A stretch of 64,000 nt of DNA from assembly GCA_038206295.1 (NCBI GenBank), contig JBBRAZ010000018.1, positions 8,728 to 72,727 of the forward strand, read 5' to 3'. The translations under genes were made by a program, and so were the position numbers. The notes beneath the pieces are model-generated. The model worked only from the letters and a program-made list of their open reading frames with translations, searched no databases and was not told where the DNA came from. The stretch comes from Acidimicrobiales bacterium (GTDB lineage: Bacteria; Actinomycetota; Acidimicrobiia; Acidimicrobiales; JBBRAZ01). Positions 10,634 to 60,023 of this stretch are shown here, one piece after another (within the stretch, counting starts at the first letter, position 1; each line of letters opens with the position of its first letter).

Positions 10634-10664
10634 CGCCGACCGCTGCACGCCGTACGCTGGGGAC

Positions 10665-19767: not shown

Positions 19768-19785
19768 TTGTGAGCGATTTCACGA
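19768..19785. promoter_or_regulatory. Rex operator-like palindrome upstream of the bc-complex/nuo gene run
   Basis: TTGTGAGCGATTTCACGA versus TTGTGAA-N4-TTCACAA (6/7 + 6/7). 32 nt upstream of ATG 19817, in the divergent intergenic region shared with the cytochrome c gene. Confidence 0.55.
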
Positions 19786-19816
19786 GGAAGGACGCCACCC
19801 GGTGGTTGCGTTTTTG

Positions 19817-20667: not shown

Positions 20668-20708
20668 GCTGCGATCACAGAGACGACTGGGATAGGTAGG
20701 AGAGCGAA

Positions 20709-21500: not shown

Positions 21501-21509
21501 GGAGCACAG

Positions 21510-22304: not shown

Positions 22305-22350
22305 TGCCGACCCCACCGATCTGCCCCGCCCGCCATCGAGGAGGACGCTC

Positions 22351-25738: not shown

Positions 25739-25739
25739 C

Positions 25740-26318: not shown

Positions 26319-26320
26319 CG

Positions 26321-35168: not shown

Positions 35169-35479
35169 TGGATCTCCACGTCACCCACGCCTGGTACCTG
35201 GTGCTCGGCGCGCTGCTGTTCACGCTCGGTGCCGTCGGGGTGGTGGTTCGCCGCAACCCACTCGTGATGCTGATGTGCGTCGAGCTGATGCTCAACGCCG
35301 TGAACCTGACCTTCGTGACGTTCAGCCGGATGCTGGGCGACGTCGGGGGCCAGACGATCGTGTTCTTCGTGCTGGTGGTCGCCGCCGCCGAGGTCGTGGT
35401 GGGCCTCGGCATCACCGTGGCCCTCCTGCGACGGCTCCCCGGTGCCACCGCCGACGACGTCTCGTACCTGAGGGGCTGA
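35168..35479 (+). CDS. nuoK: NADH-quinone oxidoreductase subunit K (operon 1)
   Basis: 103 aa, 3 [27 protein letters not shown]. Confidence 0.9.
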
Positions 35480-35486
35480 GGGAACC

Positions 35487-40629: not shown

Positions 40630-40724
40630 CTGAGGTCGCCGCCCACGGCGGCACCGGCGACGTGCGATGCAGCCGCAGCCGCCAACGACCGACCGCGTCG
40701 CCGCCGCCCCGTAGGATCGGCGCC

Positions 40725-43096: not shown

Positions 43097-45740
43097 TCGC
43101 TTCGAGCCCGAGCGGCTGCGCCGGGCCGTCACCTACCGCGCCCGGCGGTGGCTGCTCGTGCGTCGACACCGGTTCGAGCTGCGGCCGCACCCGGCGTTCG
43201 CGCCGACAGCGGTCGAGCTCCGCTCGGGCAGCACGTTGCCGGAGCGCACCGTGGTGCTGCGCGTGACGGCCGCGGCCGGTGACCCCCACGACCTCCGCCT
43301 CTTCGCACACGACCGTCACGGGCGAGGGCGGCTCGTGCACGAGATCCCGCACACCGAGGCCGGCGTGGCGGTCGACCGGCTCGTCAACCTGCCCACCCAG
43401 CTCACCGATCTGTACGTGGTCGACGCTGAAGCTGCCCGAGCGTTCACCGGCGAGGTCGAGGCGCTCGAGCTCGGCCGCGTGCCGTTGCTGGTGTGGCTCA
43501 TGGTCGCTCGCTCCCGGCGACCGACGTCGCGCGACCGAGCGGCGCCGGTCGCGGTGGCCAGGAGGGCAGGCGAGATCCTCGCCTCACACGGGCCTCGCGG
43601 GGTGCTGGAGCGCCTGTACCAGAGCCACATCGCGCGCGCCGACCCCCGACCCGGGCGCGTGCGCCTCTCGAGCGATCCGATCACCGCCAAGCGCACGGTC
43701 GACGGTGCTGATCCGCAGCTCGTGCAGCGCCACCACCGTTCTGCGGAGACGGACCTGGCTCGCCTGCTCGCCAGCGACCAGCGGGTCGTGCTCCCGCGTG
43801 CCGACGACCCAGAGGTGACGGTGGTGCTCGTGACGTGGGGCGGCGACGCGCTCACCCTCCAGGGCCTGCGAGCGCTCGCCACCAGCGTCGACGTCTCGAT
43901 CGAGGTGGTGATCGTCGACAACGGCTCGACCGATCAGACCCTCGCGCTGCTCGACCGCGTCGACGGCGCCACCATCATCCGCAACGGCGAGAACCTCGGC
44001 TACCAGGTGGCGTGCAACCAGGGCGCGTCTGCGGGGTCCGGCGAGTTCGTGCTCCTGTGCAACACCGATGCCGAGGTGCGGCCGCACGCCATCGCGGCTG
44101 CTGTCGCCGCAGCGCGCGCCCGCGGCGCCTGGGTCGTCGGTGGTCCGGTCGTCGCGCTCGACGGCCTCCTGCAGGAGGCCGGGGGCATCATGTGGTCCGA
44201 TGGCTCCTGCGAGGGATTCGGTCGGGGGCTGCGCCCCGACCGCGACGAGTTCCAGCACCCGCGCCCGGTCGACTACATCTCCGGGGTGTTCCTGCTCGCC
44301 CGCCGCGACCGCTGGGACGAGCTGGGTGGCCTCGACGAGCGGTACCACCCCGCGTACTACGAGGATGCGGACCTGTGCTTCCGGACGTGGGAGCGGGGTG
44401 GCTCGGTGTGGTACGAGCCCGAGGCATCGGTGATGCACGTGGAGCACGGCCTGGTGGCATCGGTCGATCGAGCGCGGCAGCTGATGCGCGAGCGCCGGGA
44501 GATCTTCAGGGAGATCCACGGGGCGTCGCTGGCGGAGCAGGAGCCACCCGATCGGTCCCGGCGGCTCCACGCGGCCTTGCGCGATCGCACGAGGCTCCGG
44601 GTGCTGGTGGTGGACGACCGCGTCCCGTTCGCCGATGAGGGCAGCGGGGCGCCCCGCATGGCGGCCATGGTCTCGGCGCTCGTCGAGCTGGGTTCGGTGG
44701 TCACGTTCTTCGCAAAGCTGCTGCCATCTGCCGGGCACCGTGATCCGCACGAGGTGCTGCCCCGCGAGGTCGAGGCGCTCGTCGGTCGAGGCATGACCGC
44801 CCTCGGCGAGCTCCTGCGCGAGCGCCGCGACCTCTACGACGTCGTGCTGATCAGCCGCCCGGCCAACATGGTCGACCTTCGTGCGATGCTCGACCAGGAG
44901 CCGGATCTTCTCGGCCGGAGCAAGCTGGTGTACGACGCCGAGGCCGTGGAGGCGCATCGCCTGGCGCTGGCGGCGCAGGTCGCCGGGGAGCCGATGTCGG
45001 CCTCCGCGGTGCAGGCGCTGGTTCGGCGCGAGGTCCAGCTCGCCGAGGTCGCATCGCTCGTGCTCGCGGTGTCCGAGCCCGAGGCGGCGGACTTCGTCGC
45101 CCACGGTGTCGAGCCGGTGGCGGTGGTCGGTCACGCTGTGGCGCCCGCGCCGGCGCCGGGGCGTGGTGGCCGGACATCGCTGCTCTTCGTCGGCAACCTG
45201 CGGTACACGACCCTGCCGAACGTGGACGGCCTGTGCTGGTTCCTCGACGAGGTCCTGCCGAAGCTCGTGGTCGAGCTGGCGGCGAGGGATCTCCCCATCC
45301 CTGAGGTGCGGGTCGTGGGCAGCACCACCCCGACCACCGAGGCGATGCTCGCGCACGAGGGAGCGATCCTCCTCGGAGCGGTGGCCGATCTGCGTGCCGA
45401 GTACGACCGTGCAGCGGTGTTCATCGCGCCGACACGCTTCGGTGCCGGCATCCCCCTCAAGGTCGTCGACGCGGCAGCGCACGGGGTTCCCGTCGCTGCG
45501 ACGGACCTGATCACCGCGCAGCTCCGCTGGCCGGACGGAGCGATCGTCGCGACGCCGGTGGACGGCGCAGCGATGGCGGTGGCGATCGCGGACCTCCTCG
45601 GAGACGACGCCGCCTGGGTGGCGCAGCGCACCGCTGCGCTCGAGCAGGTCGAGCGGTCGTGGTCGCACGAGGCTCTGCGAGCTGCGATGCGCACCGTGCT
45701 GGAGGGCTGCGGCCCGGAGCCGCTCTGGCGCCGCCGCTGA
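43086..45740 (+). CDS. Multidomain glycosyltransferase: unknown N-domain, then GT2, then a GT4-like domain
   Basis: GT2: VTVVLVTWGG...VVIVDNGSTDQT...LLCNTDAEV...YYEDADLCFR. C-terminal GT-B-like: LRVLVVDDRVP...LLFVGNLRY...FIAPTRFGAGIPLKVVDAAAHGVPVAAT. 884 aa. Confidence 0.8.
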   Translation: MSSDRFEPERLRRAVTYRARRWLLVRRHRFELRPHPAFAPTAVELRSGSTLPERTVVLRVTAAAGDPHDLRLFAHDRHGRGRLVHEIPHTEAGVAVDRLVNLPTQLTDLYVVDAEAARAFTGEVEALELGRVPLLVWLMVARSRRPTSRDRAAPVAVARRAGEILASHGPRGVLERLYQSHIARADPRPGRVRLSSDPITAKRTVDGADPQLVQRHHRSAETDLARLLASDQRVVLPRADDPEVTVVLVTWGGDALTLQGLRALATSVDVSIEVVIVDNGSTDQTLALLDRVDGATIIRNGENLGYQVACNQGASAGSGEFVLLCNTDAEVRPHAIAAAVAAARARGAWVVGGPVVALDGLLQEAGGIMWSDGSCEGFGRGLRPDRDEFQHPRPVDYISGVFLLARRDRWDELGGLDERYHPAYYEDADLCFRTWERGGSVWYEPEASVMHVEHGLVASVDRARQLMRERREIFREIHGASLAEQEPPDRSRRLHAALRDRTRLRVLVVDDRVPFADEGSGAPRMAAMVSALVELGSVVTFFAKLLPSAGHRDPHEVLPREVEALVGRGMTALGELLRERRDLYDVVLISRPANMVDLRAMLDQEPDLLGRSKLVYDAEAVEAHRLALAAQVAGEPMSASAVQALVRREVQLAEVASLVLAVSEPEAADFVAHGVEPVAVVGHAVAPAPAPGRGGRTSLLFVGNLRYTTLPNVDGLCWFLDEVLPKLVVELAARDLPIPEVRVVGSTTPTTEAMLAHEGAILLGAVADLRAEYDRAAVFIAPTRFGAGIPLKVVDAAAHGVPVAATDLITAQLRWPDGAIVATPVDGAAMAVAIADLLGDDAAWVAQRTAALEQVERSWSHEALRAAMRTVLEGCGPEPLWRRR

Positions 45741-45804
45741 GGTTCCCCGCTGCGGGCACCTGCACCGTCCGGGATGCGATCGGCCCGGGCGTACACTTCG
45801 GCCG

Positions 45805-47028
45805 GTGAGCATCAGCATCGTCCTCGAGCGCGACGACCGGCTCGACCGCACCACCTCCCTCGAGGTTCAGGTGATCGGTGGCGTGCTGCTGGTGACCGCG
45901 AGCCTGCGGGCGGGAGATGAGCTGGTCGTCCGCACGCCGCACCGGTTGCTCGGAACGGAACGTGCAGTCGGGGACGGGCCGGTCACCGTTGCGGTCCCCG
46001 CACTCATCCTCCCGCGCCGCTTCGAGGTGATCGTCGCCGTTCGCCGTGACGGCAAGCCGCATCGCCTCGCATCGCTCGCCGGCACCGCCAGCGTGCCGGT
46101 CGTCGCCTCCGACGCGGCGGTGCGCCCGCTGCTGGTCGCTGGCCTGGCCCGCGGGGGCACGACACTGCTGATGCGGCTGCTTCGTGAGCACCCGGCGCTG
46201 CTCGTGGTCGATGCGTACCCCTACGAGCAGCGTCACGCTGCGGTGCTGTTCCACCAGCTGCTCGCCACCGCAGCACCCGGTCTCGGGAGCGTGGCGCTTC
46301 CCGCAGGGTCGATCGGCCGATCTCGCGAGCCGGGGCCCATCGGCAACCCGTACTTCCGTCCAGAGCTGCCCCTGTTCCGGTTCCTCGCCACCGAGCACCT
46401 GGCGGCGAGGGCGCGGATGACCGCCGAGCTGGTGGATCTGCTGTACCGGGAGGTCGGAGGGCAGGCGGGAAGGCCGGCAGCGACGCACTTCGTCGAGAAG
46501 TTCGTCGGGCCGGTCCTGACGTGTGCGATGGACCACTGCTACGGGCGCACCGCCGAGCTGGTGCTCGTGCGTGACGCGCGTGATGCGGCGGTGTCGCAGC
46601 AGTCGTTCAACGAGCGGCGGGGCTTCGACGGCTTCGGCATCGGCGGCGACGAGCTCGTGGCCGTCGCTCAGCGGATCGCGAGCGCGCACCTCCAGCAGTA
46701 CAACGATCGTGTGGCCTCGAGGCCCGATCAGGTCGCGCTCATCCGCTACGAGGATCTGGTGCGCGACCCGGTGGCGACGCTCGACGCGGCGCTGGGAGGT
46801 CTCGGCCTCGGTGTCGACGGATCGGTGCTGGGCGCCATGGTCGAGGTGGCGCTCGGTGATGTGGAGATGCAGCGCTCCCACATGACGTCCTCGAGCGCCA
46901 GCGCGTCGATCGGGCGGTGGCGAGAGGTCGTCGACGACGCGCAGGCCGCGGCGCTCGACGACGCGCTCGAGGTCTTCGACCGGACCTACGGCTACGGCCG
47001 GTGGGCCGGCGGCGGCACGAGTGCCTGA
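45805..47028 (+). CDS. Sulfotransferase-family protein with a ~110-aa N-terminal extra domain
   Basis: PAPS 5-prime-phosphosulfate loop GLARGGTTLLMRLL and 3-prime-phosphate motif LVRDARDAAVSQ. Later YEDLVRDP. Confidence 0.7.
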   Translation: MSISIVLERDDRLDRTTSLEVQVIGGVLLVTASLRAGDELVVRTPHRLLGTERAVGDGPVTVAVPALILPRRFEVIVAVRRDGKPHRLASLAGTASVPVVASDAAVRPLLVAGLARGGTTLLMRLLREHPALLVVDAYPYEQRHAAVLFHQLLATAAPGLGSVALPAGSIGRSREPGPIGNPYFRPELPLFRFLATEHLAARARMTAELVDLLYREVGGQAGRPAATHFVEKFVGPVLTCAMDHCYGRTAELVLVRDARDAAVSQQSFNERRGFDGFGIGGDELVAVAQRIASAHLQQYNDRVASRPDQVALIRYEDLVRDPVATLDAALGGLGLGVDGSVLGAMVEVALGDVEMQRSHMTSSSASASIGRWREVVDDAQAAALDDALEVFDRTYGYGRWAGGGTSA

Positions 47029-47073: not shown

Positions 47074-48261
47074 TCAGGCGCCGGGCTGGCGGCGTCGCTC
47101 GCGCCTCGCCTGGAGGCTGAAGCGCACCAGCGGCCCGAGCACCAGCAGCATCGCAACCAGGCCCGCACCGACCAGCAGCGTGGCTTGGCGCGAGCTGTCC
47201 GCAGCGGCCTCGGCGGCGGTGTTGTCGACTTCGGCGCGGCCGGCGCGCAGGTCCCGGTAGCGGACGTCGAGCCCGTCGGCGAGCACCGAGGTGCCGTCGT
47301 CGAGCTGGACCACGCGGGTCACCCCGAAGCGCGATCCCTCATCGACCGTGTCGCCGACCAGCGAGGCGAGCTCGAGGAGGGTGAGCTCCACCTCGCTCGA
47401 TCCGGTCGACACGTTCAAGGTCAGCCGAGCGGTCCACGGCTTGCCGTCGATGGCCACCGTGGTCCCGGCCGCGTCTCGGGCGGTGACCCCGTCGGTGCCG
47501 ATGACGAGCGACAGCGCGCGTGGTGCGCGCAGGTCGTCGGTGGTGCGCATGACGACCTCGTCGACCGTCGAGGTGACGGGGATCGCGCCGAGCGCTGTGG
47601 GTGGGGCGTCCACGACGGTGATGCGGATGCCGGTGCCGGTGCGGGTCACCGCCGGGCCCGATGGGAGGAGTCCTGCGCTGGTGGTCGGGGCTCCGTCGGC
47701 ATCGAGGGTGACCGCGAGCGACGGCGTGCGGAGGCCGCCGTAGGGGATGCCGGTGAGCTGGTTCACGTCGATGGGTGCCAGCGCGACCTGGGCGGTGCCG
47801 GCCTCTTCACGTTGGACCGATCTGACGTGCATGCCCCCTGAGTTGGTCGGGCGACCGGGGACGTCGATGGCGACGCCCTCCTCCTCGATGGCGGTGGCAG
47901 CGGTGCCCGACGGGGTGGCCTCCGTGCCGTTCAGCGTGGCGATGGCGGAGGAGGGGACCCCGTCGTTGGTCATCATCGTGACGCGGATCGGGTCCGGCTG
48001 CCATCCGATCGTGGACATGCGGATCGCCCAGTCGTCGAGGTCGGTGCCCTCGGAGGTGATCAGGTGGTAGCGGTTCGTCGGCGACTCGTCGCGCCACACG
48101 GCGACGATCGGGATGGGTTCGGGACCGGTGTGGAGGTCGGCGATCGCGGCGATGGCCGGAGGCTCGTCGGCGGCGGGCACCTGTGCGGAGGCAGCGGTGG
48201 GAGCGAGCAGCACCAGCGTCGCTGCGATCAGGAGGGCGACGCGGCGCGGCACGTCGACCAT
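47074..48261 (-). CDS. Secreted Thr/Ala/Val-rich protein with a C-terminal TM anchor, unknown function
   Basis: Signal peptide MVDVPRRVALLIAATLVLLAPTAASAQ. C-terminal TLLVGAGLVAMLLVLGPLV followed by RFSLQARRERRRQ. Confidence 0.6.
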   Translation of the reverse strand: MVDVPRRVALLIAATLVLLAPTAASAQVPAADEPPAIAAIADLHTGPEPIPIVAVWRDESPTNRYHLITSEGTDLDDWAIRMSTIGWQPDPIRVTMMTNDGVPSSAIATLNGTEATPSGTAATAIEEEGVAIDVPGRPTNSGGMHVRSVQREEAGTAQVALAPIDVNQLTGIPYGGLRTPSLAVTLDADGAPTTSAGLLPSGPAVTRTGTGIRITVVDAPPTALGAIPVTSTVDEVVMRTTDDLRAPRALSLVIGTDGVTARDAAGTTVAIDGKPWTARLTLNVSTGSSEVELTLLELASLVGDTVDEGSRFGVTRVVQLDDGTSVLADGLDVRYRDLRAGRAEVDNTAAEAAADSSRQATLLVGAGLVAMLLVLGPLVRFSLQARRERRRQPGA

Positions 48262-48309: not shown

Positions 48310-48327
48310 TTGTGCGCCCGTTCACTA
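48310..48327. promoter_or_regulatory. Weak Rex-box-like palindrome upstream of the second nuo operon
   Basis: TTGTGCGCCCGTTCACTA versus TTGTGAA-N4-TTCACAA (5/7 + 6/7). It overlaps the first candidate GTG (48312) of nuoA2 and favours GTG 48339 as the start. Confidence 0.3.
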
Positions 48328-48338
48328 ATCTCGCCCGC

Positions 48339-48704
48339 GTGTCGGACTTCCTGCGGTCCTACCTCACCGTCGGCATCTTCTGCGGCCTTGGCTTCGGCAT
48401 GGTCGCGGCCCTCCTGGGCCTGGGCAGCGTGCTGCGCCCGTCGCGCCCCCAGGGCCAGAAGTACCTGACGTACGAGTCGGGCGTCGATCCGGTGCCCGGC
48501 GGCTGGGGGCAGACGCAGATCCGCTACTACGTGTTCGCGCTCCTCTTCGTGCTCTTCGACGTCGAGGCGGTGTTCATCTTCCCGTGGGCCACCCGCGTCG
48601 AGGCGTACGGCGTGTTCGGCCTGGTCGAGATGGGCATCTTCATCGGGATCCTCGCCCTCGGGCTCATCTACGCGTGGCGCAAGGGGGTCCTCAAGTGGGC
48701 CTAG
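48339..48704 (+). CDS. nuoA: Complex I-like subunit A (operon 2)
   Basis: [23 protein letters not shown]. 121 aa from GTG 48339 (alternative GTG 48312). Confidence 0.85.
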
Positions 48705-49195
48705 TCGACAGCGGCCACTCGCCCAAGGCGCTCACCGCGCTGCTCAACACGGCGCGCAAGTACTCGCTGTGGGTCTACCAGTGGGGCCTCGCGTGCTGCG
48801 CCATCGAGATGGGCGCCGCCTTCGTATCGCCGCGCTACGACATCATGCGCCTGGGTGTGATCCCGTTCCCCGCCAGCCCCCGCCAGGCTGACCTGGTCAT
48901 CGTCTCGGGCACGCTCACCGACAAGATGGTGCCGTCGCTCGTCCGCCTCTACGAGCAGATGCCGGACCCGAAGTACGTCATCTCCATGGGATCGTGCGCC
49001 AACTGCGGCGGTCCTTACTGGGACAGCTACTCGGTGACCAAGGGCGTCGACCAGGTGCTGCCCGTCGACGTGTACATCCCTGGCTGCCCGCCGCGGCCCG
49101 AGGCGCTGCTCGAGGGCGTGATCCTGCTCCAGGAGCGGATCCAGAACGAGGACCCGGTCGAGCGCTGGAAGGGTGATCCCATTGTCGTCGGCTGA
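48695..49195 (+). CDS. nuoB: Complex I-like subunit B (operon 2)
   Basis: [34 protein letters not shown]. Confidence 0.9.
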
Positions 49196-49868
49196 CGCGG
49201 GCACCGAGGTCGAAGCGGTCGACGCGCCCCGCGACGAGGCGCTCGATGCCCTTCTGGCGATCTTCGGCGACGCGCTCGGCGACTCCGTGGTCGGCAGCCA
49301 CCAGCGCCCCGGAGGCGACCTGTGGGTCCGCGTCGCCGCCGAGGCGTGGGTCGCCGCCGGCGAGTGCGCACGGCACCGCGCCAAGCGACCGTTCTTCGAC
49401 TTCCTCTCCGTCATCGACTGGCTGCCGTCGCCGTTCGGGCGGGAGATGGACAGCGAGGTCGACACCATCGTCCACGGCGCCGCGGACAAGGAGGCACCGG
49501 CGATGGCCACCGGCGTCGCCGGCGGCGACACCCGGTTCCAGGTCTTCGCTCGGGTGGCGCCCGCGGGCCCCGGCCCCGGCGTGGTGCTCAAGGTCGACGT
49601 CCCCGATGACACGATGACGCTGCCCACGTGGGTGCCGGTGTACGTCGGTGCCGACTGGCACGAGCGCGAGGCGTGGGAGATGTACGGCGTGACCTTCGCC
49701 GGTCACCCCTACCTGCGCCACATCTACCTCCCCGGCGAGTTCGAGGGCCACCCGGGCCGCAAGGACTTCCCGCTCCTGGCGCGCAAGGTCAAGCCGTGGC
49801 CCGGCATCGTGGACGTCGAGCCAATGCCCGGCGCTGCCGATGACGAGGACTCGGAGGCGAGCGAGTGA
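49173..49868 (+). CDS. nuoC: Complex I-like subunit C (operon 2)
   Basis: [37 protein letters not shown]. Internal ~25-aa insertion and acidic tail. Start uncertain (GTG 49173 or TTG 49182). Confidence 0.85.
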
Positions 49869-51037
49869 CCGCCATCACCGACCGCGAGATGCGCGCGTAC
49901 GTGAGCCAGCAGGCAGCCGACGCACGCGTGAACGTCGAGATCGAGACCGAGGGGATGACCCTCAACATCGGCCCGCAGCACCCCGCCACGCACGGCACCC
50001 TGCGCATCGTCGTGAAGCTCGACGGCGAGCAGGTGATCGCGGCCGAGCCGATCATGGGCTACATGCACCGGGGCTACGAGAAGCTCACCGAGGTCCGGAC
50101 GTACCCCCAGATCACGACGCTCATCAACCGCATCGACTGGGTCGGCAGCTTCGCCAACGAGGTCCCGTTCGTCCTCGCCGCGGAGCAGCTCATGGAGGTC
50201 GAGGCCCCCGAGCGAGCCCAGTGGATCCGCACGATCCTCTTCGAGATGAGCCGCATCGCCAACATCGTGCTCTTCCTCGGCGACCTCGGCGCCCAGCTCG
50301 GCGGCGTCACGGCGGTCTTCTACGCCTTCCGCGACCGCGAGTACGTCCTCAACCAGATCGAGTCGCTGACCGGTGGCCGGTTCCACCCCAACTTCGACCG
50401 CATCGGCGGCCTGAAGGACGACCTGCCGAAGGGCTGGGTCGAGGAGACCAAGGTCGTGATGGAGAAGGTCCGTGGCTTCTGCGACGAGATCGAGGACCTG
50501 CTCGTCGGCAACGAGATCTTCCAGGCCCGCACCCGGGGGATCGGCGTCATCCCGCCCGAGGTCGGCCTCGCCTACGGCCTGTCGGGGCCCAACATCCGCG
50601 CCAGCGGTGTCGACTGGGACCTGCGCCGCGACGCGCCCTGCGGCCTCGTCTACGACGAGCTGGACTGGAAGGTCTGGACGCACCCCGACGGCGTCTCGTT
50701 CGCCCGCACCTGGGTGCGGCTCCAGGAGACCCGTGAGGCGACGAAGATCGTCGACCAGCTCCTCGACGGCCTGCCCGGCGGGCCGATCATGGCCAAGGTG
50801 CCGCGCATCATCAAGGTGCCTGCGGGCGAGGCCTACGTCGAGACGGAGAACCCGCTCGGTGCCATGGGCTACTACGTGGTGTCCAAGGGCGACCTCAACC
50901 CGTTCCGGGTCAAGATCCGCTCGGCGTCGTTCAACAACGTCTCGATCGTGCCGTGGATCATGCGCGGCGTCTACGTGCCCGACGTGATCACGATCCTCGC
51001 CTCGCTGTACTTCATCCTGGGGGACATCGACCGGTGA
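49865..51037 (+). CDS. nuoD: Complex I-like subunit D (operon 2), HRG-type
   Basis: [24 protein letters not shown] (Arg codon 50069-50071), C-terminal [13 protein letters not shown]. Confidence 0.92.
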
Positions 51038-52074
51038 GCGTGCTGGCGGACATCTCCGCACTCGATCCGTACTGGGCCCAGACCGTCCTCAAGGGCGCCG
51101 TCGTCGCGCTCGTCATCCCGACGGGCGCGCTCATCTTGGGCTGGACGTTCCTGTTCAAGATGATGGCGCACATGCAGAGCCGGCACGGCCCGATGGAGGC
51201 CGGCCCGCACGGCCTGCTCCAGCTCCTCGCCGAGGGCGTGAAGTTCCTCCAGAAGGAGGACCTCACCCCCGACGGAGCCGACTTGCGCGTCTTCCGCTGG
51301 GCGCCGGCAGTGGTGCTCGTGAGCACCTTCCTGCTCTACGTCGTCATCCCCGTCGGCCCCGACCTCATCGTCGAGGACCTGCCGACCGGCATCTACTACG
51401 CGCTGGCGGTCTCGTCGCTGTCGGTCATCGGCATCCTGATGGCGGGCTGGGGCTCGGCCAACAAGTACTCGCTGCTCGGCGGCCTGCGCGCCGCAGGCCA
51501 GCTCATCGCGTACGAGCTGCCGATGGTGCTCGCGGTGGTCGGCGTGGTCATCCAGGCGGGCACGCTGTCGATGCAGGGCATCGTCTACGCCCAGGCCGAG
51601 GGCTCCATCTTCGGCATCGACTGGTTCGGCAACCCGTTCATCATCACGCAGATCGTCGGGTTCGGGATCTTCCTCGTCGCCATCCAGGCCGAGCTCACGC
51701 AGCCGCCGTTCGACATGCCGGTCGCCGAGTCCGAGATCGTGGGCGGCTACCAGGTCGAGTACTCGGGCTTCCGCTTCCTCATCTTCTTCATGGGCGAGTT
51801 CGGCACGGCGTTCGCCTTCGCAGCCATCACCTCGGTGCTGTTCCTCGGCGGCTGGTCGGTGCCGTTCATCGACCCGAGCGACAACATCATGAACGTCATC
51901 GGGCCGATCGCCATGCTGACGAAGGTCATGTTCGTGTCGTTCCTCATCTTCTGGGCGCGGTTCACCTATCCCCGCTTCCGCGAGGACCAGCTCCAGAAGC
52001 TGGCGTGGAAGGTCCTCATCCCGCTCTCGCTCGTCAACATCGTCGTCACCGCGGTCCTGAAGGTGGTGTTCTGA
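51034..52074 (+). CDS. nuoH: Complex I-like subunit H (operon 2)
   Basis: [54 protein letters not shown] overlap with nuoD2. Confidence 0.92.
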
Positions 52075-52565
52075 TGCCTCCCAAGCTCCCCGGTCTCATC
52101 AAGGGCCTCGGCGTCACCTTCAAGGAGATGCTGAAGCCGACGGTGACCGTGCAGTACCCGCACGTCAAGGAGGCGCCCCCGACGCGGGCCCGTGGCGTGA
52201 TCGCGCTGCACGAGGAGAACTGCACCGCCTGCATGCTGTGCGTCCGCGAGTGCCCGGACTGGTGCATCTACATCGAGGGCCACAAGGTCCTGGCGCCGCC
52301 GCGACGCGAGGGGGGCAAGCCCCGCGCCAAGAACAAGCTCGACCGCTTCGACATCGACTACGCGCTGTGCATGTACTGCGGCATCTGCGTCGAGGTGTGC
52401 CCGTTCGAGGCGATCTTCTGGAGCCCGGAGTACGAGTTCTCCGAGCCGCGGATCGCGGACCTCCTCCACGACAAGACCCGCCTGGGCGAGTGGATGGAGA
52501 CCGTCCCCGAGTTCGAGCCGTACGAGGCGGGCGCCGAGGTCAAGATCAAGAAGGTGCCGCGCTGA
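52074..52565 (+). CDS. nuoI: Complex I-like subunit I (operon 2)
   Basis: [12 protein letters not shown] and [12 protein letters not shown], separated by a Lys/Arg-rich loop. Confidence 0.9.
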
Positions 52566-53056
52566 TGGTGGCCCAGAACATCGCCTTCGGCGTGATCGCC
52601 GCGATCATGATCGGCTCCGCGCTGCGCGTGGTCACCACCCCCAACATCGTGCACGCCGCGCTCTACCTCGTGCTGGTGCTCGCCGGCGCCGCGGCGCAGT
52701 TCCTGCTGCTCGCGGCGGAGTTCGTCGCCGTCACGCAGGTGCTCGTCTACATCGGCGCCATCGTCGTGCTGTTCCTGTTCGGCATCATGCTCACCAAGCG
52801 CGAGATGGGCAGCGAGGACGAGCTCGACAACGACCAGAAGCTTCTCGCCGGCGTCGTCGCCTTCGGTCTGCTCGGCGTGCTCGGTGGCACGTTGTGGGAC
52901 ACGTGGCGCGACGCCGAGTTCGGCGCCATCACGCCGCAGACAACAGCGCAGGTCAGCGACAGCATCTTCGGTCCGTACCTCATCGCGTTCGAGGTCATCT
53001 CGGTCCTCCTCCTCGCCGCCCTCATCGGGGCCATCGTCGTGGCCAGGAGGGACTGA
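52565..53056 (+). CDS. nuoJ: Complex I-like subunit J (operon 2)
   Basis: [20 protein letters not shown]. Start overlaps the nuoI2 stop. Confidence 0.87.
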
Positions 53057-53057
53057 C

Positions 53058-53357
53058 GTGCTGCTCAACCAGTTCCTCCTCCTCGCCGCCGTCCTGTTCT
53101 GCATCGGCGTCTACGGCGTGCTCGCCCGGCGCAACGGCGTCGCGGTGCTCATGTCCGTCGAGCTCATCTTGAACGCCGTGAACATCAACCTCGTGGCCTT
53201 CGGGGCCTGGCACGGCGACGTGGCCGGCGCCGTCTTCGCCCTGTTCGTGATCGCCGTCGCCGCCGCCGAGGTCGGCGTGGGCCTCGCGATCGTGCTGCTC
53301 CTGTACCGCAACCGCCAGAGCATCGACATCGATGACGTCGATCTCATGAAGGGCTGA
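53058..53357 (+). CDS. nuoK: Complex I-like subunit K (operon 2)
   Basis: 99 aa. [28 protein letters not shown]. Confidence 0.9.
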
Positions 53358-53360
53358 GCT

Positions 53361-55676
53361 GTGTCCGACACCTGGCTGCTCGAGAACGTGTGGATCATCC
53401 CGACGATCCCCTTCGTCTCGTTCTGGCTGATCCTCTTCTTCGGCAAGCGCCTCCCCGGCCGCGGCCACGAGATCGGCATCGCGTCGGTCGTCGCCGCGTT
53501 CGTGCTGGCCTGCATGGTGGGCGTGGCGTGGATCGGCCACGTCGACGACGCCGCGGCCGGCCACGGCGAGCCCGCGACCGAGGAGCACGGCACCGAGCCC
53601 GCCGCCGACGACCACGGCTTGGGCACCGGCGAGCTGTCCGCCGCGGTCGACACCGGCGACACGGCCGCCGCCGACGACCACGGCACCGAGGTGGCCGCGG
53701 AGCTGGCGGCCGAGGAGGAGCACGCGGCGGAGGGCGAGCACGCCGGGGTCGAGCCCATCTCGCGCCGGGTGGTGTGGCTGCAGTCCGACGGCGTCGAGAT
53801 CAACGCCGGCACCATGGTCGACGGGCTCACCGCGGTGATGCTCTTCGTCGTCACCTTCATCTCGCTGCTGGTGCACGTGTTCAGCACCGACTACGTGCAC
53901 GGCGACCGCCGCTACACGCACTACTTCGCCTTCCTCAGCCTGTTCACCGCCTCGATGCTGCTGTTCGTCATGAGCGACAACACGCTGCAGATGCTGGTCG
54001 GCTGGGAGCTCGTCGGCGTCTGCTCGTTCGCTCTCATCGGCCACTGGTGGGAGGAGAAGCCCAACTCCGACGCCGCCCTCAAGGCGTTCCTCACCAACCG
54101 CGTGGGCGACATGGGCCTCATCATCGGGGTGAGCATCCTGTTCATCGAGGCCGGCACCTTCGACGTGGTGCGCATCAACCAGATGGCGATCGCCGGTGAG
54201 CTCAACCACCTCGTCCTGCTCGTCTCGGCCTGCAGCCTCATCGGCGCGGTGATGTCGAAGTCCGGCCAGTTCTTCCTGCACACCTGGCTGCCCGATGCCA
54301 TGGCCGGACCGACGCCGGTCTCGGCGCTCATCCACGCCGCCACCATGGTGGTCGCCGGCATCTTCATGGTCGCCCGCCTCTACGGCGTGTTCTGGCACGG
54401 CCTGTCCATCGGCACCTCCAGCATCAACCTCCTGGCGCTCGTCGGCGGCACCACCACGCTGGTCGGCGGCTCGCTGGCGTTCGTGCAGAAGGACATCAAG
54501 AAGGTCCTCGCCTACTCGACCGTCTCGCAGCTCGGCTACATGGTCATGGCGCTCGGGGTCGGGGCGTGGACCGCGGCGATCTTCCACCTCTTCACGCACG
54601 CCTTCTTCAAGGCCTGCCTGTTCCTGGGCGCCGGCTCGCTCAGCCACGCCTGCCACCACAGCTTCAACATGGTCGACGACATGGGCGGGCTGCGGAAGCG
54701 GATGCCGATCACCCACGCCACGTTCGCCATCGGCACCCTGGCGCTGGCCGGCATCCCGATCTTCGCCGGCTTCTGGTCCAAGGACGAGATCCTCGCCGGG
54801 GCCATGCAGAACGGCGACGGCGGCTACCCGATCATGCTGGTCATGGGCCTCATGACGGCGTTCATGACCGCCGCCTACATGGGTCGCGCCTACTTCTACG
54901 CCTTCCTCGGCGAGTACCGCGGCGGCCACGACGACGCCCACGGCCACGCCGATGCGCACGACGCCCACGCGGCACCAGCCCATGACGTGCACGATGAGCA
55001 CGACGCCCACGCCGGCGAGCCCCACGAGTCCGGTCCCCGGATCGTGGTGCCGCTCATGATCCTGGCGTTCCTCTCGGTCGTCGCCGGCTTCGCCAACCTT
55101 CCCGGCGACCTCGGCTTCGCGACGGTCCCCGAAGATCTGGCGCACCGGTTCCAGCACTACGTGGAGCCGACGGGCAGCTACTTCCCTGCGGTCTCCCACG
55201 CCGACTTCGATCTCGGCCTGGCCATCGGCTCCAGCCTGCTGGCCATCAGTGGGCTGGTGGTCGCCTACCTCTTCTTCGTGCGCAACCTCGGCCCGCACGG
55301 GATCTCGCAGCGCAACGCGGTGTTCGGCTTCGGCCGCCGGGTGCTCGAGAACAAGTACTACCTCGACTGGCTGTACACCGACGTCATCGCCGGCGGCACC
55401 AAGGGCCCGATCGCCCGCGCTGCCTACTGGTTCAACCAGAACGTCATCGACGGCGTCGTCAACGGCGTCGGCGTCGGCGCCAAGCGCTTCGGGGTGGTCG
55501 TCTACGAGCAGATCGACCAGAAGGTGGTCGACGGGGCCGTCAACGGCTCCGGTGCAGGGGCCAGCGGCACGGGGGAGATCCTCCGCCACATCCAGACGGG
55601 CAGGGTGCAGCAGTACGGCGCACTGTTCTTCATCGCCACGGCGTTCCTCGCCGGTGTCTTCGTCGTGATCATCTAG
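53361..55676 (+). CDS. nuoL: Complex I-like subunit L (operon 2) with two His/Asp-rich insertions
   Basis: LVGWELVGVCSFALIGHWW, KSGQFFLHTWLPDAMAGPTPVSALIHAATMV. 771 aa versus 650 aa for the operon-1 copy. Confidence 0.92.
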   Translation: MSDTWLLENVWIIPTIPFVSFWLILFFGKRLPGRGHEIGIASVVAAFVLACMVGVAWIGHVDDAAAGHGEPATEEHGTEPAADDHGLGTGELSAAVDTGDTAAADDHGTEVAAELAAEEEHAAEGEHAGVEPISRRVVWLQSDGVEINAGTMVDGLTAVMLFVVTFISLLVHVFSTDYVHGDRRYTHYFAFLSLFTASMLLFVMSDNTLQMLVGWELVGVCSFALIGHWWEEKPNSDAALKAFLTNRVGDMGLIIGVSILFIEAGTFDVVRINQMAIAGELNHLVLLVSACSLIGAVMSKSGQFFLHTWLPDAMAGPTPVSALIHAATMVVAGIFMVARLYGVFWHGLSIGTSSINLLALVGGTTTLVGGSLAFVQKDIKKVLAYSTVSQLGYMVMALGVGAWTAAIFHLFTHAFFKACLFLGAGSLSHACHHSFNMVDDMGGLRKRMPITHATFAIGTLALAGIPIFAGFWSKDEILAGAMQNGDGGYPIMLVMGLMTAFMTAAYMGRAYFYAFLGEYRGGHDDAHGHADAHDAHAAPAHDVHDEHDAHAGEPHESGPRIVVPLMILAFLSVVAGFANLPGDLGFATVPEDLAHRFQHYVEPTGSYFPAVSHADFDLGLAIGSSLLAISGLVVAYLFFVRNLGPHGISQRNAVFGFGRRVLENKYYLDWLYTDVIAGGTKGPIARAAYWFNQNVIDGVVNGVGVGAKRFGVVVYEQIDQKVVDGAVNGSGAGASGTGEILRHIQTGRVQQYGALFFIATAFLAGVFVVII

Positions 55677-55693
55677 GGAGCGCTGAACGAGCC

Positions 55694-57370
55694 ATGGAAG
55701 AGTTCATCAACGACTGGGGCCTCACGGTCGCCACGTTCCTCCCCATCGTGGGCGCACTCGCGCTGCTGGTGGTGCCGAAGGATGAGGAGGGCACCATCAA
55801 GGGGTTCGCCCTGCTCGTCTCGCTGGCCACCGCGGCCATCGGCGTCGGCGTCATGGCGCAGTTCGACTACGACGACGCGGGCGCGCTGCAGTTCGTCTAC
55901 GAGCACGACTGGATCGACGTCATCCACAGCCGCTACATCGTCGGCATCGACGGCATCTCGCTGCCGATGTTCGCCTTGACGCTGCTCATCGTGCCGCTGT
56001 GCATCGTCTACTCGTGGAACCACTTCCCCGAGCCGCACAACCCCAAGGCCTTCCTGGCGCTGCTGCTCGTGCTCGAGACCGGCATGCTCGGCTCGTTCAT
56101 CGCCCAGGACCTCATCTTGTTCTTCGTCTTCTTCGAGCTCGTGCTGCTGCCGATGTACTTCATGATCGGCGTGTGGGGCGGGCCTGACCGCCAGTACGCC
56201 TCGATCAAGTTCTTCCTGTACACGCTGTTCGGCTCGGCGCTGATGATCGTCGCCTTCGTCGCCCTCTTCTTCGCGACCGACGGCCAGACGTTCGACATCC
56301 GCGTCGGGGTGGAGGGCGCGCTGCCGGCTGCGGCGGCCGGCATCCCGAAGACCACCGCGCTGTGGATCTTCGGCGGCATGTTCATGGGCTTCGCCATCAA
56401 GGTGCCGATGTTCCCGTTCCACACCTGGCTGCCCGACGCCCACACCCAGGCGCCGACGGTCGGCTCGGTCATCCTGGCCGCCGTGCTCCTGAAGCTCGGC
56501 ACCTACGGCTTCATCCGCATCGCGCTGCCGATCCTTCCCGAGGCCGCGGTCGAGTTCGCACCGTGGATCGGCCTGCTGGCGGTCATCGGCATCATCTACG
56601 GCGCGCTGGGCTGCCTCGCGCAGTCCGACATGAAGCGGCTCATCGCGTTCTCGTCGGTGGCGCACATGGGCTTCGTGATGCTCGGCATCGCGACGCTCAC
56701 GCCCTTCGGCATCAACGCCGCCATCTTCGGCATGGTCGCCCACGGCCTCATCACCGGGATGCTGTTCTTCATCGCCGGGTCCACCAAGGAGCGCTACCAC
56801 ACGCTCGAGATCTCACGGCTCGGCGGCCTGCTGGTCACCGCGCCGAAGATGGGTTGGATCCTCGGCCTGTGCACCATGGCGTCGCTGGGGCTGCCCGGCC
56901 TCGCCGGATTCTGGGGCGAGTTCCCCGCCATCCTCTCGGCGTACCGCCCCGGCGCCGGGATGCCCGAGGAGACGTTCCGGGCGTTCATGGTCATCGCAGC
57001 GCTGGGTACCGTGCTCGCCGCGGGCTACCTGCTGTGGCTGTACCAGCGGGTCGCGTTCGGCACGCCCAAGCCCGAGTGGGAGGGCCACGACATCCCCGAC
57101 GTGCAGCCGGCGGAGTGGATCGCCTGGCTGCCGCTGCTCGCCCTCATCCTGGGGCTCGGCATCTACCCGCACGCCATGTACCGGGTCATCGATCCGGCGG
57201 TGACCCAGCAGACGGTCTGCGCCGCGGTCGACCCCGCCGCGCCCGCGTGCCACGAGGACGACGCGGAGCCGTCCGACGACCACGCCGAGGACGCTGAGGA
57301 CGCTGAGGACGCCGACCACGGCGACGCCGTCGACGACCACGCCGCGCCCCTCGGCGCGGCGGGGGGCTGA
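55694..57370 (+). CDS. nuoM: Complex I-like subunit M (operon 2)
   Basis: KVPMFPFHTWLPDAHTQAPTVGSVILAAVLLKLG. Acidic/His-rich C-terminal tail. Confidence 0.92.
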   Translation: MEEFINDWGLTVATFLPIVGALALLVVPKDEEGTIKGFALLVSLATAAIGVGVMAQFDYDDAGALQFVYEHDWIDVIHSRYIVGIDGISLPMFALTLLIVPLCIVYSWNHFPEPHNPKAFLALLLVLETGMLGSFIAQDLILFFVFFELVLLPMYFMIGVWGGPDRQYASIKFFLYTLFGSALMIVAFVALFFATDGQTFDIRVGVEGALPAAAAGIPKTTALWIFGGMFMGFAIKVPMFPFHTWLPDAHTQAPTVGSVILAAVLLKLGTYGFIRIALPILPEAAVEFAPWIGLLAVIGIIYGALGCLAQSDMKRLIAFSSVAHMGFVMLGIATLTPFGINAAIFGMVAHGLITGMLFFIAGSTKERYHTLEISRLGGLLVTAPKMGWILGLCTMASLGLPGLAGFWGEFPAILSAYRPGAGMPEETFRAFMVIAALGTVLAAGYLLWLYQRVAFGTPKPEWEGHDIPDVQPAEWIAWLPLLALILGLGIYPHAMYRVIDPAVTQQTVCAAVDPAAPACHEDDAEPSDDHAEDAEDAEDADHGDAVDDHAAPLGAAGG

Positions 57371-57372
57371 TC

Positions 57373-58881
57373 GTGCCGCTGCTGCTCGCCGCCGAGGGGT
57401 TCGTGCGTCCGGTCATCGACTGGCACGCCTTCGCGCCCGAGCTGGTCCTCGCCGCGGTCATCGCGGTGCTCGTGCTCGTCGACTCGTTCACCCGCCCGGG
57501 GAACAAGTGGGCCGTGCCGTCGCTCGCCGGCATCGGGCTCCTGGCGACCGCCGTGCCGCTGCTGTCGCTGGTCTCCGACGGCACCGACCGCTCCATGTTC
57601 GGCGGGGCGTACGTCGTCGACGACTTCGCCCTGACGCTCAAGCTGCTCTTCGTCGCCTCCGCGTACGTGGTGGTCCTGCTGGCCACCAACTACATCGCCG
57701 AGGGCGACTACTGGGAGGGCGAGTTCTACACGATGCTGCTGTGCTCGGTGCTGGGCATGCTCGTCATGGCCAGCGCGCGCGACCTCATCACGATCTTCGT
57801 CGCCCTCGAGCTGCTCTCGATCCCCGCCTACCTCCTGGCCGCGTGGCGCAAGCGCGACCCGCGCTCCAACGAAGCCGGCCTCAAGTACTACCTGATGGGC
57901 GTGTTCGCCACCGCCGTGCTCCTGTACGGCATGTCGCTGCTGTACGGCGTCACCGGCTCCACGCTGCTGACCGACATCGGCGCCTACGTGCAGCAGGGCT
58001 CGAGCTCGACACCGATCGTCACCCTCGCGATCGTGCTGGTCATCATCGGGTTCGCCTTCAAGGTCTCCGCCGTGCCGTTCCACACGTGGGCGCCGGACAC
58101 CTACGAGGGCGCACCGACGCCGGTCGCCGCGTTCCTGGCCGTGGCGTCGAAGACCGCCGGGTTCGTGGCGCTGATGCAGCTGGTGGTCGTCGGCTTCCTC
58201 GGTCGCTCGGATGTGTACGAGCCGATGATCTGGGCGCTGGCGGTGGCGTCGATGACCGTCGGCAACCTGATCGCGATCCGCCAGGACAACGTGGTGCGCA
58301 TGCTCGCGTACTCCGGCATCGCGCAGGCCGGCTACATCCTGGCGCCGCTGGCGGTGGCGTCGCACGACCCGAACCAGGCCGTCGGCTCCATGGTGAGCTA
58401 CCTGATGATCTACGCCGCCATGAACCTCGGCGCCTTCGCGGTGATCATCGCCGCGGCGCGCAAGACGCGCTCCGCCGAGGTCGACAGCTTCAACGGCCTC
58501 TTCTCGTACGCGCCGGCGCTGGCGGTGACGATGAGCATCTTCCTGTTCTCGCTCGCGGGCATCCCGCCGCTCGGCGGCTGGTTCGCCAAGTTCCAGATCT
58601 TCTACGCCGTGATCGACGCCCAGACCACGTCGGCCTACGTGCTGGCGGTCATCATCGGCCTCAACTCGGTGCTGGCGCTCTACTACTACGCCCGGGTGGC
58701 CCGCGCGATGTGGTTCGAGGAGTCGCCAGACGGCGACGTGTCGCCGGTGCAGGTGCCGGTCTCGCTGCGAGCGGCGATCGGCATGTGCGCAGTGGCGACC
58801 GTCGTGGTCGGTGTGCTGCCGGGCCTTGTCGGCCACGTCAGCGAGACGGTCGGCCTCCTCGCCACCGCCGCCGGCCGCTGA
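57373..58881 (+). CDS. nuoN: Complex I-like subunit N (operon 2)
   Basis: KVSAVPFHTWAPDTYEGAPTPVAAFL. Confidence 0.92.
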   Translation: MPLLLAAEGFVRPVIDWHAFAPELVLAAVIAVLVLVDSFTRPGNKWAVPSLAGIGLLATAVPLLSLVSDGTDRSMFGGAYVVDDFALTLKLLFVASAYVVVLLATNYIAEGDYWEGEFYTMLLCSVLGMLVMASARDLITIFVALELLSIPAYLLAAWRKRDPRSNEAGLKYYLMGVFATAVLLYGMSLLYGVTGSTLLTDIGAYVQQGSSSTPIVTLAIVLVIIGFAFKVSAVPFHTWAPDTYEGAPTPVAAFLAVASKTAGFVALMQLVVVGFLGRSDVYEPMIWALAVASMTVGNLIAIRQDNVVRMLAYSGIAQAGYILAPLAVASHDPNQAVGSMVSYLMIYAAMNLGAFAVIIAAARKTRSAEVDSFNGLFSYAPALAVTMSIFLFSLAGIPPLGGWFAKFQIFYAVIDAQTTSAYVLAVIIGLNSVLALYYYARVARAMWFEESPDGDVSPVQVPVSLRAAIGMCAVATVVVGVLPGLVGHVSETVGLLATAAGR

Positions 58882-60023
58882 CCTCCACCGCCACCCCCGC
58901 CGCCGCGCTCGTCGCCGAGCAGGTCGCGCGCCACGGACCGGTCTCGTTCTCCACCTTCCTCGACCTCGCGCTGTACGACCCAGCCCACGGCTTCTACGCC
59001 GGCAGCGGCGGCCAGGCCGGTCGAGGAGGGGATTTCCTCACCAGCCCGGAGGTCGGTCCGCTGTTCGGCGCGGTCCTCGCTCGAGCGCTCGACGCCTGGT
59101 GGACCGAGCTCGGCGAGCCCGATCCGTTCGTCGTGGTGGAAGCCGGCGCCGGGCGCGGCGCGCTGGCGATCGCGGTGCGCGCCGCGGCGCCGCGTTGCGC
59201 GCCGGCCCTGCACTACGTCCTCGTCGAGCGCTCTGCGACGCTGCGGGCGAGTCAGGCCGAGCACCTCTCGCTCACGGTGCCGAGCCAGGTGCTGGGCGCG
59301 GCGGCCGGGCCTGATCCCGACGCAGGTTCGCTGCGTGGGACCGGTCCGCTGTTCACCTCGCTCGGTGAGCTGCCCGAGACCGCCATGACCGGTGTGGTCC
59401 TCGCCAACGAGCTGCTCGACAACCTGACGTTCGATCTGCTCGAGCGCACCGCCGAGGGCTGGGACGAGGTCCGGGTCGGCGTCGGAGCTGATGGCGAGCT
59501 CGTCGAGGTGCTCGTGCCCGCCCGTGAGGCCGATGGCGCGCTCGCAGCGCACCTCGCGCCCGGCGCGTCAGCGGGCGGGCGTCTGCCCCTGCAGCACCAG
59601 GCAGCCAGCTTCCTGCGAGAGGCACTCGCGCTCCTGGAGGCAGGCAGGGTCGTGCTCATCGACTACGCGGACACCTCGCAGCACCTCGTGGAGCGGGCGA
59701 CCGACGAGTGGCTGCGCACGTACCGCGACCACGGCCGCGGCCAGCGCCCGCTGGAGGCAGCTGGGCTGCAGGACGTGACCTGCGAGGTCGACGTCGACCA
59801 GCTGGCGCGCATCCGTCGCCCGGATGTGCAGCGCACCCAGGCCGAGCTCCTCGTGGCCCAAGGCATCGACGAGCTCGTCGACGAGGGCCGTGCCATCTGG
59901 GAGGAGCGTGGCCACCTCGGCGACCTCGCGGCGCTGCGGGGCCGCAGCCGCGTCCGGGAGGCGGAGGCGCTGTGCGACCCCGCCGGCCTCGGCGCCTTCA
60001 CCGTCCTCGAGTGGATCGTCTGA
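58878..60023 (+). CDS. MidA/NDUFAF7-family (DUF185) SAM-dependent methyltransferase
   Basis: [26 protein letters not shown] (SAM loop), [14 protein letters not shown]. 5-prime end uncertain: the only in-frame start-like codon near the conserved N-terminus is CTG 58878, overlapping the nuoN2 TGA. Confidence 0.8.

Follow-up and report, generated by a model that had tools for sequence, protein, structure and literature searches.

Cyanobacterial and chloroplast NDH-1 are ferredoxin:plastoquinone oxidoreductases, and the archaeal Fpo enzyme is an F420H2:methanophenazine oxidoreductase. NUO11 enzymes are documented in many phyla, actinobacteria included (PMC3144371), and Streptomyces possesses a second nuoA2-N2 set without nuoE, nuoF and nuoG, the proteins of which have been detected (PMC3765725, PMC9739823). 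For other enzymes lacking this NADH-oxidising module (N-module), ferredoxin is the accepted or proposed electron donor (PMC3144371, PMC11238625). Here, we analysed a stretch of 64,000 nucleotides (nt) from an Acidimicrobiales bacterium (contig JBBRAZ010000018.1, assembly GCA_038206295.1; hereafter the window), in which a second, NuoEFG-less complex I operon (operon 2) follows a complete one (operon 1). In view of the NUO11 and Streptomyces precedents such an operon is not new in itself, and the novelty implied for it in a first-pass annotation, made from the letters of the sequence, was overstated. We tentatively read operon 2 as encoding a functional complex I-like proton pump of ancient divergence, composed of the Q- and P-modules plus its own maturation enzyme, supplied by a ferredoxin-type donor and controlled by Rex.

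An intact eleven-gene nuo set and its complete neighbor

The features of operon 2 are the following (aa, amino acids; SAM, S-adenosylmethionine; dN/dS, ratio of nonsynonymous to synonymous substitution rates).

48310..48325, + strand: Rex-operator-like inverted repeat TTGTGCGCCCGTTCAC, found by pattern search, 14 nt 5' of the nuoA2 GTG
48339..48704, + strand: nuoA2, 121 aa; PF00507, E 1e-34; 30% identity to NuoA1
48704..49195, + strand: nuoB2, 163 aa; PF01058; NF005012, 218 bits against a cut-off of 116
49173..49868, + strand: nuoC2, 231 aa; PF00329, covering residues 112-203 only, E 8e-25
49865..51037, + strand: nuoD2, 390 aa; PF00346; residues mapped on the T. thermophilus Nqo4 alignment
51034..52074, + strand: nuoH2, 346 aa; PF00146, E 1.5e-99; 44% identity to NuoH1
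52074..52565, + strand: nuoI2, 163 aa, with two CxxCxxCxxxCP motifs; Fer4 families and NuoI models; dN/dS 0.04
52562..53056, + strand: nuoJ2, 164 aa; PF00499
53058..53357, + strand: nuoK2, 99 aa; PF00420; NF004322, 129.5 against a cut-off of 128
53361..55676, + strand: nuoL2, 771 aa; PF00361 and PF00662; NF005141, 574 against a cut-off of 556
55694..57370, + strand: nuoM2, 558 aa; PF00361 and PF01059
57373..58881, + strand: nuoN2, 502 aa; PF00361; TIGR01770, 408 against a cut-off of 332.6
58785..60023, + strand: MidA/NDUFAF7-family SAM-dependent methyltransferase; PF02636 (Methyltransf_28), E 2e-35

All eleven Nuo products match the expected Pfam families, in order and far above gathering scores, and NCBIfam gives Nuo names to the ten subunits scanned (all except NuoM2). 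From nuoA2 to nuoJ2 successive genes overlap by 1, 23, 4, 4, 1 and 4 nt, and the later junctions are gaps of 1-17 nt. Neither frameshifts nor internal stops were found in the genes of operon 2, and consensus scans for promoters and terminators around its ends returned no matches. NuoB2 keeps the four cysteines of cluster N2 (CC, SMGSC, GCPP), so that with the two NuoI2 motifs the Fe-S ligands for N2, N6a and N6b are all present. In the membrane subunits, both membrane glutamates of NuoK2 can be read in its sequence, and pairwise alignments with operon 1 show retention of the conserved charges of NuoL2 (WE, SKS, HAFFK, FWSKDE) and of the corresponding residues of NuoM2 (FFE, AIKVP, LLK, FWGEF) and NuoN2 (LELLS, AFKVS, SKTA, WFAKF). 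The Glu of transmembrane helix (TM) 5, the Lys of TM7 and TM8 and the Lys/Glu of TM12 in these three subunits are thus those of operon 1.

To place the operon in its lineage, we used as related loci the best 80 of 592 confirmed stretches from a scan in which each GTDB species was represented by one genome; these 80 all belong to Acidimicrobiia or unclassified Actinomycetota and match at 78-83% identity. The same eleven-gene order is found in them wherever the contig extends far enough. Against the closest relative (locus L085), dN/dS is 0.04-0.29 across ten genes. The least conserved subunit is NuoC2 (mean identity 55% in the related loci, dN/dS 0.27), the N-terminal half of which is divergent and the start codon uncertain. 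Operon 2 is therefore intact, under purifying selection and not a decayed copy; it is conserved across Acidimicrobiia and recurs in at least 80 species. The nearest NuoD2 homologues (82-93% identity) come from Acidimicrobiales and Microthrix-type metagenome-assembled genomes, not from Streptomyces. Activated sludge, sponges, soils and lakes are rich in Acidimicrobiia.

No homologue of nuoE, nuoF or nuoG lies inside or beside operon 2 (48339-60023), and NuoE, NuoF and NuoG queries matched nothing within 10 kb of nuoD2 in the 80 related loci. NuoD2 also has none of the cysteine pairs of NiFe-hydrogenases, its N-terminal (GPQHPATHG) and C-terminal stretches being free of Cys. Operon 1, 7.7 kb upstream (25271-40629), is in turn a full 14-gene nuoA-N operon, in which NuoF and NuoG were recognized by Pfam and NuoE (about 28122-28754) was read from the translation. 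Paralogues of the two operons share 30-50% identity (31-38% for NuoC2, NuoD2 and NuoI2), which makes operon 2 an old paralogue and not a recent duplicate. The neighborhood of the two operons recurs: in 40 of the 80 loci, the 6.5 kb upstream of nuoA2 contain a co-oriented nuoN of the operon-1 type, and in about 12 related genomes the gap is below 200 nt, a direct tandem.

Most of this had been anticipated by the first-pass annotation, which listed the eleven genes at 48339-58881 with their tight junctions, the N2 cysteines of NuoB2, both NuoI2 boxes and the complete operon 1, and which took operon 2 to lack its own N-module and not to be decayed; each of these statements holds. It had also named inactivating changes in proton-channel residues as a possibility, and the antiporter residues turn out to be retained. 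Its account of the cluster was correct for the eleven genes and missed a twelfth, which extends to 60023, and it overlooked the altered quinone-site residues of NuoD2.

NuoL2 carries a His/Asp/Glu/Ala-rich insert of about 75 residues after TM2 (residues ~58-135), absent from NuoL1, and a second His-rich stretch (residues ~520-560) ahead of the long C-terminal lateral helix. NuoM2 ends in an acidic, His-rich tail (57200-57370), as does NuoM1. These low-complexity segments of NuoL2 and NuoM2 could be metal-binding or disordered.

A remodelled NuoD and a linked methyltransferase

Alignment of NuoD2 with T. thermophilus Nqo4 revealed that His43 (Thermus His38) and the HRGxE motif are kept, whereas three residues of the quinone site are replaced (Thermus numbering first): Tyr87 by Trp92, Asp139 by Gln144 and Asp401 by Tyr382. 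In a check of the canonical quinone-site residues His38, Tyr87 and Asp139, NuoD2 thus retains the His and departs at the other two. It also lacks about 25 residues present in long-type NuoDs (Thermus 314-336). The Trp occurs in 120 of 120 close NuoD2 homologues, the Gln in nearly all of them by pattern search, and the Tyr in those in which the C-terminal motif was detected. We considered the 25-residue deletion as a marker of lost N-module docking and rejected it, because cyanobacterial NdhH, which also has no N-module, is long-type.

The first-pass annotation had proposed a phylogenetic placement of the second operon, which we carried out for NuoD2 with 150 representatives of clusters at 50% identity. 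Most of the other full-length NuoDs display an H-R-Y-D-D pattern and 14 representatives an H-R-W-x-x pattern; in an outgroup-rooted neighbour-joining tree (midpoint rooting was uninformative) the latter form a pure clade that includes NuoD2 and excludes NuoD1. The nearest relatives of NuoD2 outside this Trp-type clade are short-type NuoDs, not NuoD1. NuoD1 scores 449 bits with the NuoD of Thermus and 447 bits with that of M. smegmatis, while NuoD2 stays well below NuoD1 with every solved complex I and reaches 325 bits at best.

A profile of the Trp type also retrieves proteins of Embleya, Yinghuangia, Actinoallomurus, Actinomadura, Planotetraspora, Mumia and Carbonactinospora. In four genomes (loci L081-L084, from Embleya, Carbonactinospora, Mumia and Actinoallomurus; ~3300-11200) the Trp-type nuoD is solitary, outside any nuo operon, and adjoins a folE/folP/folB/folK/DUF3180 folate cluster; in all four, a Methyltransf_28 gene is found 3.4-6 kb upstream on the same strand. 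Two genes for bPH_2 membrane proteins stand immediately upstream of the orphan nuoD in three of the four. The second nuo set of Streptomyces has been described as contiguous 'with the exception of nuoD2' (PMC3765725), a layout that the orphan fits, so that by inference the orphan Actinomycete nuoD would be the nuoD2 of the Streptomyces nuoA2-N2 system. In the NuoD of piericidin-producing Streptomyces, Degli Esposti noted the change of Tyr87 to Trp and a change at position 401, and took them as self-resistance (PMC4758237). Read across the homologues aligned here, the changes at Tyr87 and 401 are a lineage-wide property.

The gene missed after nuoN2 was masked by a long mechanical open reading frame (ORF; 57507-60023). 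It starts either at the GTG at 58785, giving a 97-nt overlap with nuoN2, or at a non-canonical CTG at 58878, which overlaps the nuoN2 stop. Its product scores 122.9 bits with PF02636 (cut-off 23.3). Among solved structures it is related to 4f3n and 1zkd, both COG1565/DUF185 proteins, and to 5ztz, the NDUFAF7 homologue of Dictyostelium; the motifs GDFxTSPE, GxGxG and ANELxD (ANELLDN) are recognizable when it is aligned to the first two. A MidA-like gene comes directly after nuoN2, in the same orientation, in 38 of the ~67 related loci with enough downstream sequence, and lies within 2 kb downstream in about six more. Compared with L085, in which an independent gene caller also predicts it, its dN/dS is 0.21. 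A gene for a MidA/NDUFAF7-family methyltransferase is hence fused to the 3' end of operon 2. In L085 an inserted FitA-like/PIN toxin-antitoxin pair (10823-11445) separates nuoN2 from the MidA-like gene.

An antisense ORF at 58686-59552 on the minus strand, matched in 33 loci, was discarded: it has no domain, its sequence is junk-like, and it is the shadow of the plus-strand MidA gene. The GC content of the window is ~70%, and high GC gives rise to long antisense shadow ORFs, just as the mechanical ORF list hides real genes within longer out-of-frame ORFs. Since shadow ORFs mirror real genes, they yield conserved tblastn matches across species.

NDUFAF7 symmetrically dimethylates Arg85 of the bovine and human 49-kDa subunit NDUFS2, in the motif LLHRGTEK; the same arginine is modified in Paracoccus Nqo4, and Thermus has a Thr there (PMC3750175, PMC3829151). 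At this position NuoD2 has an arginine (Arg69, in GYMHRGYEK), and NuoD1 a Thr (GYLHTGMEK). The facing subunit differs in the reciprocal sense: at the position of Arg83 in T. thermophilus Nqo6, NuoB2 has a Thr (VSGTLTDKM) and NuoB1 an Arg (VAGRVSQKM). The best solved matches of NuoB2 are mitochondrial NDUFS7 proteins, with SGTLTDKM aligned to AGTLTNKM. Such an inter-subunit switch was described by Hameedi et al. for Thermus (Nqo4-Thr/Nqo6-Arg83) and Yarrowia (NDUFS2-Arg121/NDUFS7-Thr122) (PMC8042128). On these alignments, the Thr/Arg pair of operon 1 is Thermus-like and the Arg/Thr pair of operon 2 mitochondrion-like, which would leave no NuoD of this genome but NuoD2 as a possible target. We thus propose that the operon-encoded methyltransferase may dimethylate Arg69 of NuoD2, the HRG arginine beside cluster N2, as NDUFAF7 does on Arg85 of NDUFS2.

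Methyltransferase genes within nuo operons have an in-silico precedent in the SAM-dependent methyltransferase urf7 of the Rhodobacter capsulatus nuo cluster (PMC9036352), and in the literature that we searched the function of prokaryotic MidA is inferred in silico only. The same search returned no operon-encoded MidA/NDUFAF7 homologue of this kind, no reciprocal Arg/Thr NuoD/NuoB pairs within one genome and no clade-wide loss of the Tyr/Asp/Asp quinone-site residues.

Compared with the 11-subunit enzymes lacking an N-module, operon 2 has the same A, B, C, D, H-N set and likewise neither NuoEFG, NiFe cysteines nor a linked donor gene; it differs in coexisting with, and usually adjoining, a full 14-subunit operon, in having lost Tyr87, Asp139 and Asp401 from NuoD2, and in ending in a MidA/NDUFAF7-type gene. 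With the second nuo set of Streptomyces (nuoA2, B2, H2-N2 and an unlinked nuoD2) it shares the phylum and the position of an N-module-less set beside nuoA-N, and with the Embleya, Actinoallomurus, Carbonactinospora and Mumia orphans, compared by NuoD alone, it shares the Trp-type clade. Unlike these, its eleven genes are contiguous, nuoC2 and nuoD2 included, and the methyltransferase is in the operon, whereas the Actinomycetes examined have a solitary nuoD with a divergent Methyltransf_28 gene 3-6 kb away. The complex I of mitochondria and Paracoccus resembles operon 2 in pairing the NuoD HRGxE arginine beside N2 with a NuoB/NDUFS7 Thr, and in the PF02636 motifs (PMC3750175, PMC3829151, PMC8042128); operon 2 differs in having neither an N-module gene in cis nor the quinone-site Tyr, and its methylation is predicted. 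An alpha-proteobacterial origin has been described for MidA, while the host of operon 2 belongs to Actinomycetota.

Finally, cyanobacterial and chloroplast NDH-1 share the lack of NuoEFG, and among solved structures NdhH ranks second for NuoD2 (307 bits). Nevertheless, NdhH keeps the Tyr and is long-type whereas NuoD2 has the Trp and is short-type, and the subunits of operon 2 fall below the cut-offs of the Ndh H, I, J, F and B models (NCBIfam NdhH 343 against 583, NdhI 68 against 302). No NdhS-like gene was seen in the scanned ORFs, nor any conserved small partner gene in the flanks.

A Rex-like operator and the genes around the two operons

Upstream of both operons, the window encodes a Rex repressor:

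5347-6021: rex gene (PF06971 and PF02629), with a palindromic box at 5312-5329

This rex gene precedes haem-synthesis genes (sirohaem synthase-like, GlutR, HemD/methylase, ALAD and an aminotransferase), and the rex-hem layout at 5312-6021 is as in Streptomyces. The pattern TTGTG-N6-TTCAC occurs with zero mismatches at two further sites, 19768-19783 before a bc-type cluster and 48310-48325 before nuoA2. The putative operator at nuoA2 agrees with the consensus TTGTGAA-N4-TTCACAA at 11 of 14 positions, and no such Rex-like site was found before nuoA1. With up to one mismatch allowed, GTGAA-N4-TTCAC is present in the 200 nt ahead of nuoA2 in 13 of 73 related loci, where 0.4 would be expected, and its position is often -29 or -38. 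These sites are only suggestive, and the expression of operon 2 is probably under Rex.

The bc-type cluster (19768-24347) is unusual in composition: it encodes a 4Fe-4S dicluster protein, a Rieske protein, a c-type cytochrome and a cytochrome b divided between an N-terminal and a C-terminal gene, in the manner of b6/subunit IV. The ferredoxin-like gene that the first-pass annotation had reported in it (20251-20667) is confirmed by Pfam as Fer4.

Between the two nuo operons (40632-47028), genes for an ABC-2 permease, an ABC ATPase, a 916-aa double glycosyltransferase and a sulfotransferase form a glycan-export/sulfation cassette, in which the gene of the ABC-2-type permease is hidden within a long ORF (39015-42224). 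On the minus strand, divergent from nuoA2, a 395-aa gene (47074-48261) has a coding-like GC content at third codon positions; it has no Pfam or NCBIfam match and is not conserved beside the operon in the related loci.

Electron donor, quinone chemistry and alternative readings

We searched the neighborhood of operon 2 for a partner that could supply electrons. Among the window ORFs scanned with Pfam and in the conserved flanks, no ferredoxin, flavodoxin, FpoF/FrhB or NdhS-like partner gene was found, in agreement with the first-pass annotation, which had seen no FpoF- or NdhS-like gene. Clustering of the flanking ORFs in loci with both nuoA2 and nuoN2 gave only operon-1 subunits, MidA, the shadow ORF and minor unrelated families. 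By analogy with the other enzymes lacking an N-module, direct reduction of NuoI2 by a soluble carrier is favored, and ferredoxin is our best guess for the donor. The affinity of NuoD2 to short-type NuoDs, and not to NuoD1, was also counted in favor of this donor. Electrons from a soluble low-potential carrier of the ferredoxin or flavodoxin type would then enter at NuoI2, with no dedicated NADH module, and pass through N6a, N6b and N2 to menaquinone. The latter would bind in the altered pocket, which retains the His and has Trp for the Tyr and Gln and Tyr for the two Asp, while protons would be pumped via NuoH/A/J/K and L/M/N. Under Rex control, operon 2 would be derepressed at high NADH/NAD+. 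More specifically, it is possible, if doubtful, that the MidA/NDUFAF7 homologue dimethylates the N2-proximal arginine of NuoD2 and that the site with Tyr, Asp and Asp replaced reduces menaquinone or another acceptor by non-canonical chemistry.

Several points weigh against this reading. No donor gene lies in the window and none is conserved beside the operon in the 80 loci, so that the ferredoxin step is drawn from analogy, and the upstream operon present in half of these loci, abutting nuoA2 in about 12 genomes, bears nuoEFG. Control by Rex would suit an NADH-linked enzyme equally well. Without Tyr87 and Asp139, NuoD2 lacks residues to which proton donation or coupling in quinone reduction is ascribed, and equivalent Tyr-to-Trp mutants lose most of their decylubiquinone activity (cited in PMC4758237); menaquinone reduction by the NuoD2 enzyme is accordingly not assured. 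As for the methyltransferase, about one third of the related loci have no MidA gene beside nuoN2, and the HRG arginine is found in many NuoDs and carries no methylation in E. coli (PMC3750175). The Methyltransf_28 proteins near the orphan nuoD are only 29-32% identical and have HFRTSVH in place of GDFLTSPE, which makes the linkage in Actinomycetes supportive, not decisive.

The main rival, which we regard as rather unlikely, is that Nuo2 is an alternative NADH:menaquinone oxidoreductase isozyme, borrowing the NuoEFG of operon 1, with a quinone site that is insensitive to inhibitors or tuned differently, and switched on through Rex when NADH builds up. The first-pass annotation had held that the donor cannot be NADH; this goes too far, since the neighboring, at times tandem, nuoEFG operon and the Rex-type operator at nuoA2, for which no counterpart was found before nuoA1, leave a shared N-module some likelihood. 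A precedent exists in the proposal that one nuoEFG of Syntrophobacter serves two sets of the other genes (PMC4453560), and the changes at Tyr87 and Asp401 have been linked to resistance to piericidin and rotenone (PMC4758237). However, NuoC2, NuoD2 and NuoI2, needed for the binding of NuoG, have diverged to 31-38% identity from their operon-1 paralogues, NuoD2 clusters with short-type NuoDs and not with NuoD1, and a second linked nuoEFG set is missing from all of the 80 loci. The changed quinone site would also be explained if operon 2 were not a forward quinone reductase, and instead either ran in reverse, oxidizing menaquinol at the expense of the proton-motive force to reduce ferredoxin, or used an acceptor other than menaquinone. 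We consider this improbable: the shift from H-R-Y-D-D to H-R-W-x-x is clade-wide, and NuoD2, like short-type NuoD homologues, can be aligned over its full length with subunit 6u8y_L of the Pyrococcus membrane-bound sulfane reductase, yet the membrane arm is that of a standard complex I (NuoH, A, J, K, L, M, N, with a long NuoL) and not of Mrp/Mbx type, His38 and HRGxE are kept, and Tyr87 mutants still reduce short-chain quinones (PMC4758237).

An Fpo-type F420H2 dehydrogenase with its FpoF/FrhB-like subunit encoded elsewhere in the genome seems very improbable. The resemblance lies in the missing NuoEFG and in the short-type D subunit, NuoD2 aligning with FpoD in a single stretch; operon 2 nonetheless has no FpoF, no FrhB/FpoF domain occurs in the scanned window ORFs or is conserved beside the operon, and all the Fpo models score far below their NCBIfam cut-offs (FpoD 328/600, FpoH 260/475, FpoL 358/1050, FpoI 50/180, FpoC 47/220). 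Least credible of all is the view that operon 2 duplicates operon 1, redundantly or in decay, and has no separate function; nothing speaks for it beyond the existence of two copies. The divergence of the paralogues, the intact reading frames, the dN/dS values and the conservation in at least 80 species contradict it, as does the detection of the homologous Streptomyces proteins by proteomics (PMC9739823), and the selection and conservation data have already refuted it.

The question of the donor of N-module-less complex I dates from 2011; operon 2 does not answer it but offers two concrete handles. If our proposal for the methyltransferase is true, the operon would hold a genetically linked bacterial enzyme-substrate pair for arginine dimethylation outside Proteobacteria. 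The Thr of NuoD1 and the Arg of NuoD2, in one cell, provide a natural internal control for studying the effect of dimethylation on N2 and on assembly. The Trp-type NuoD clade, widespread in Acidimicrobiia and reaching relatives of Streptomyces, is a whole clade without the Tyr87 and Asp139 that are central to models of quinone reduction and coupling. If the Trp-type enzyme pumps, these models need another route for proton donation.

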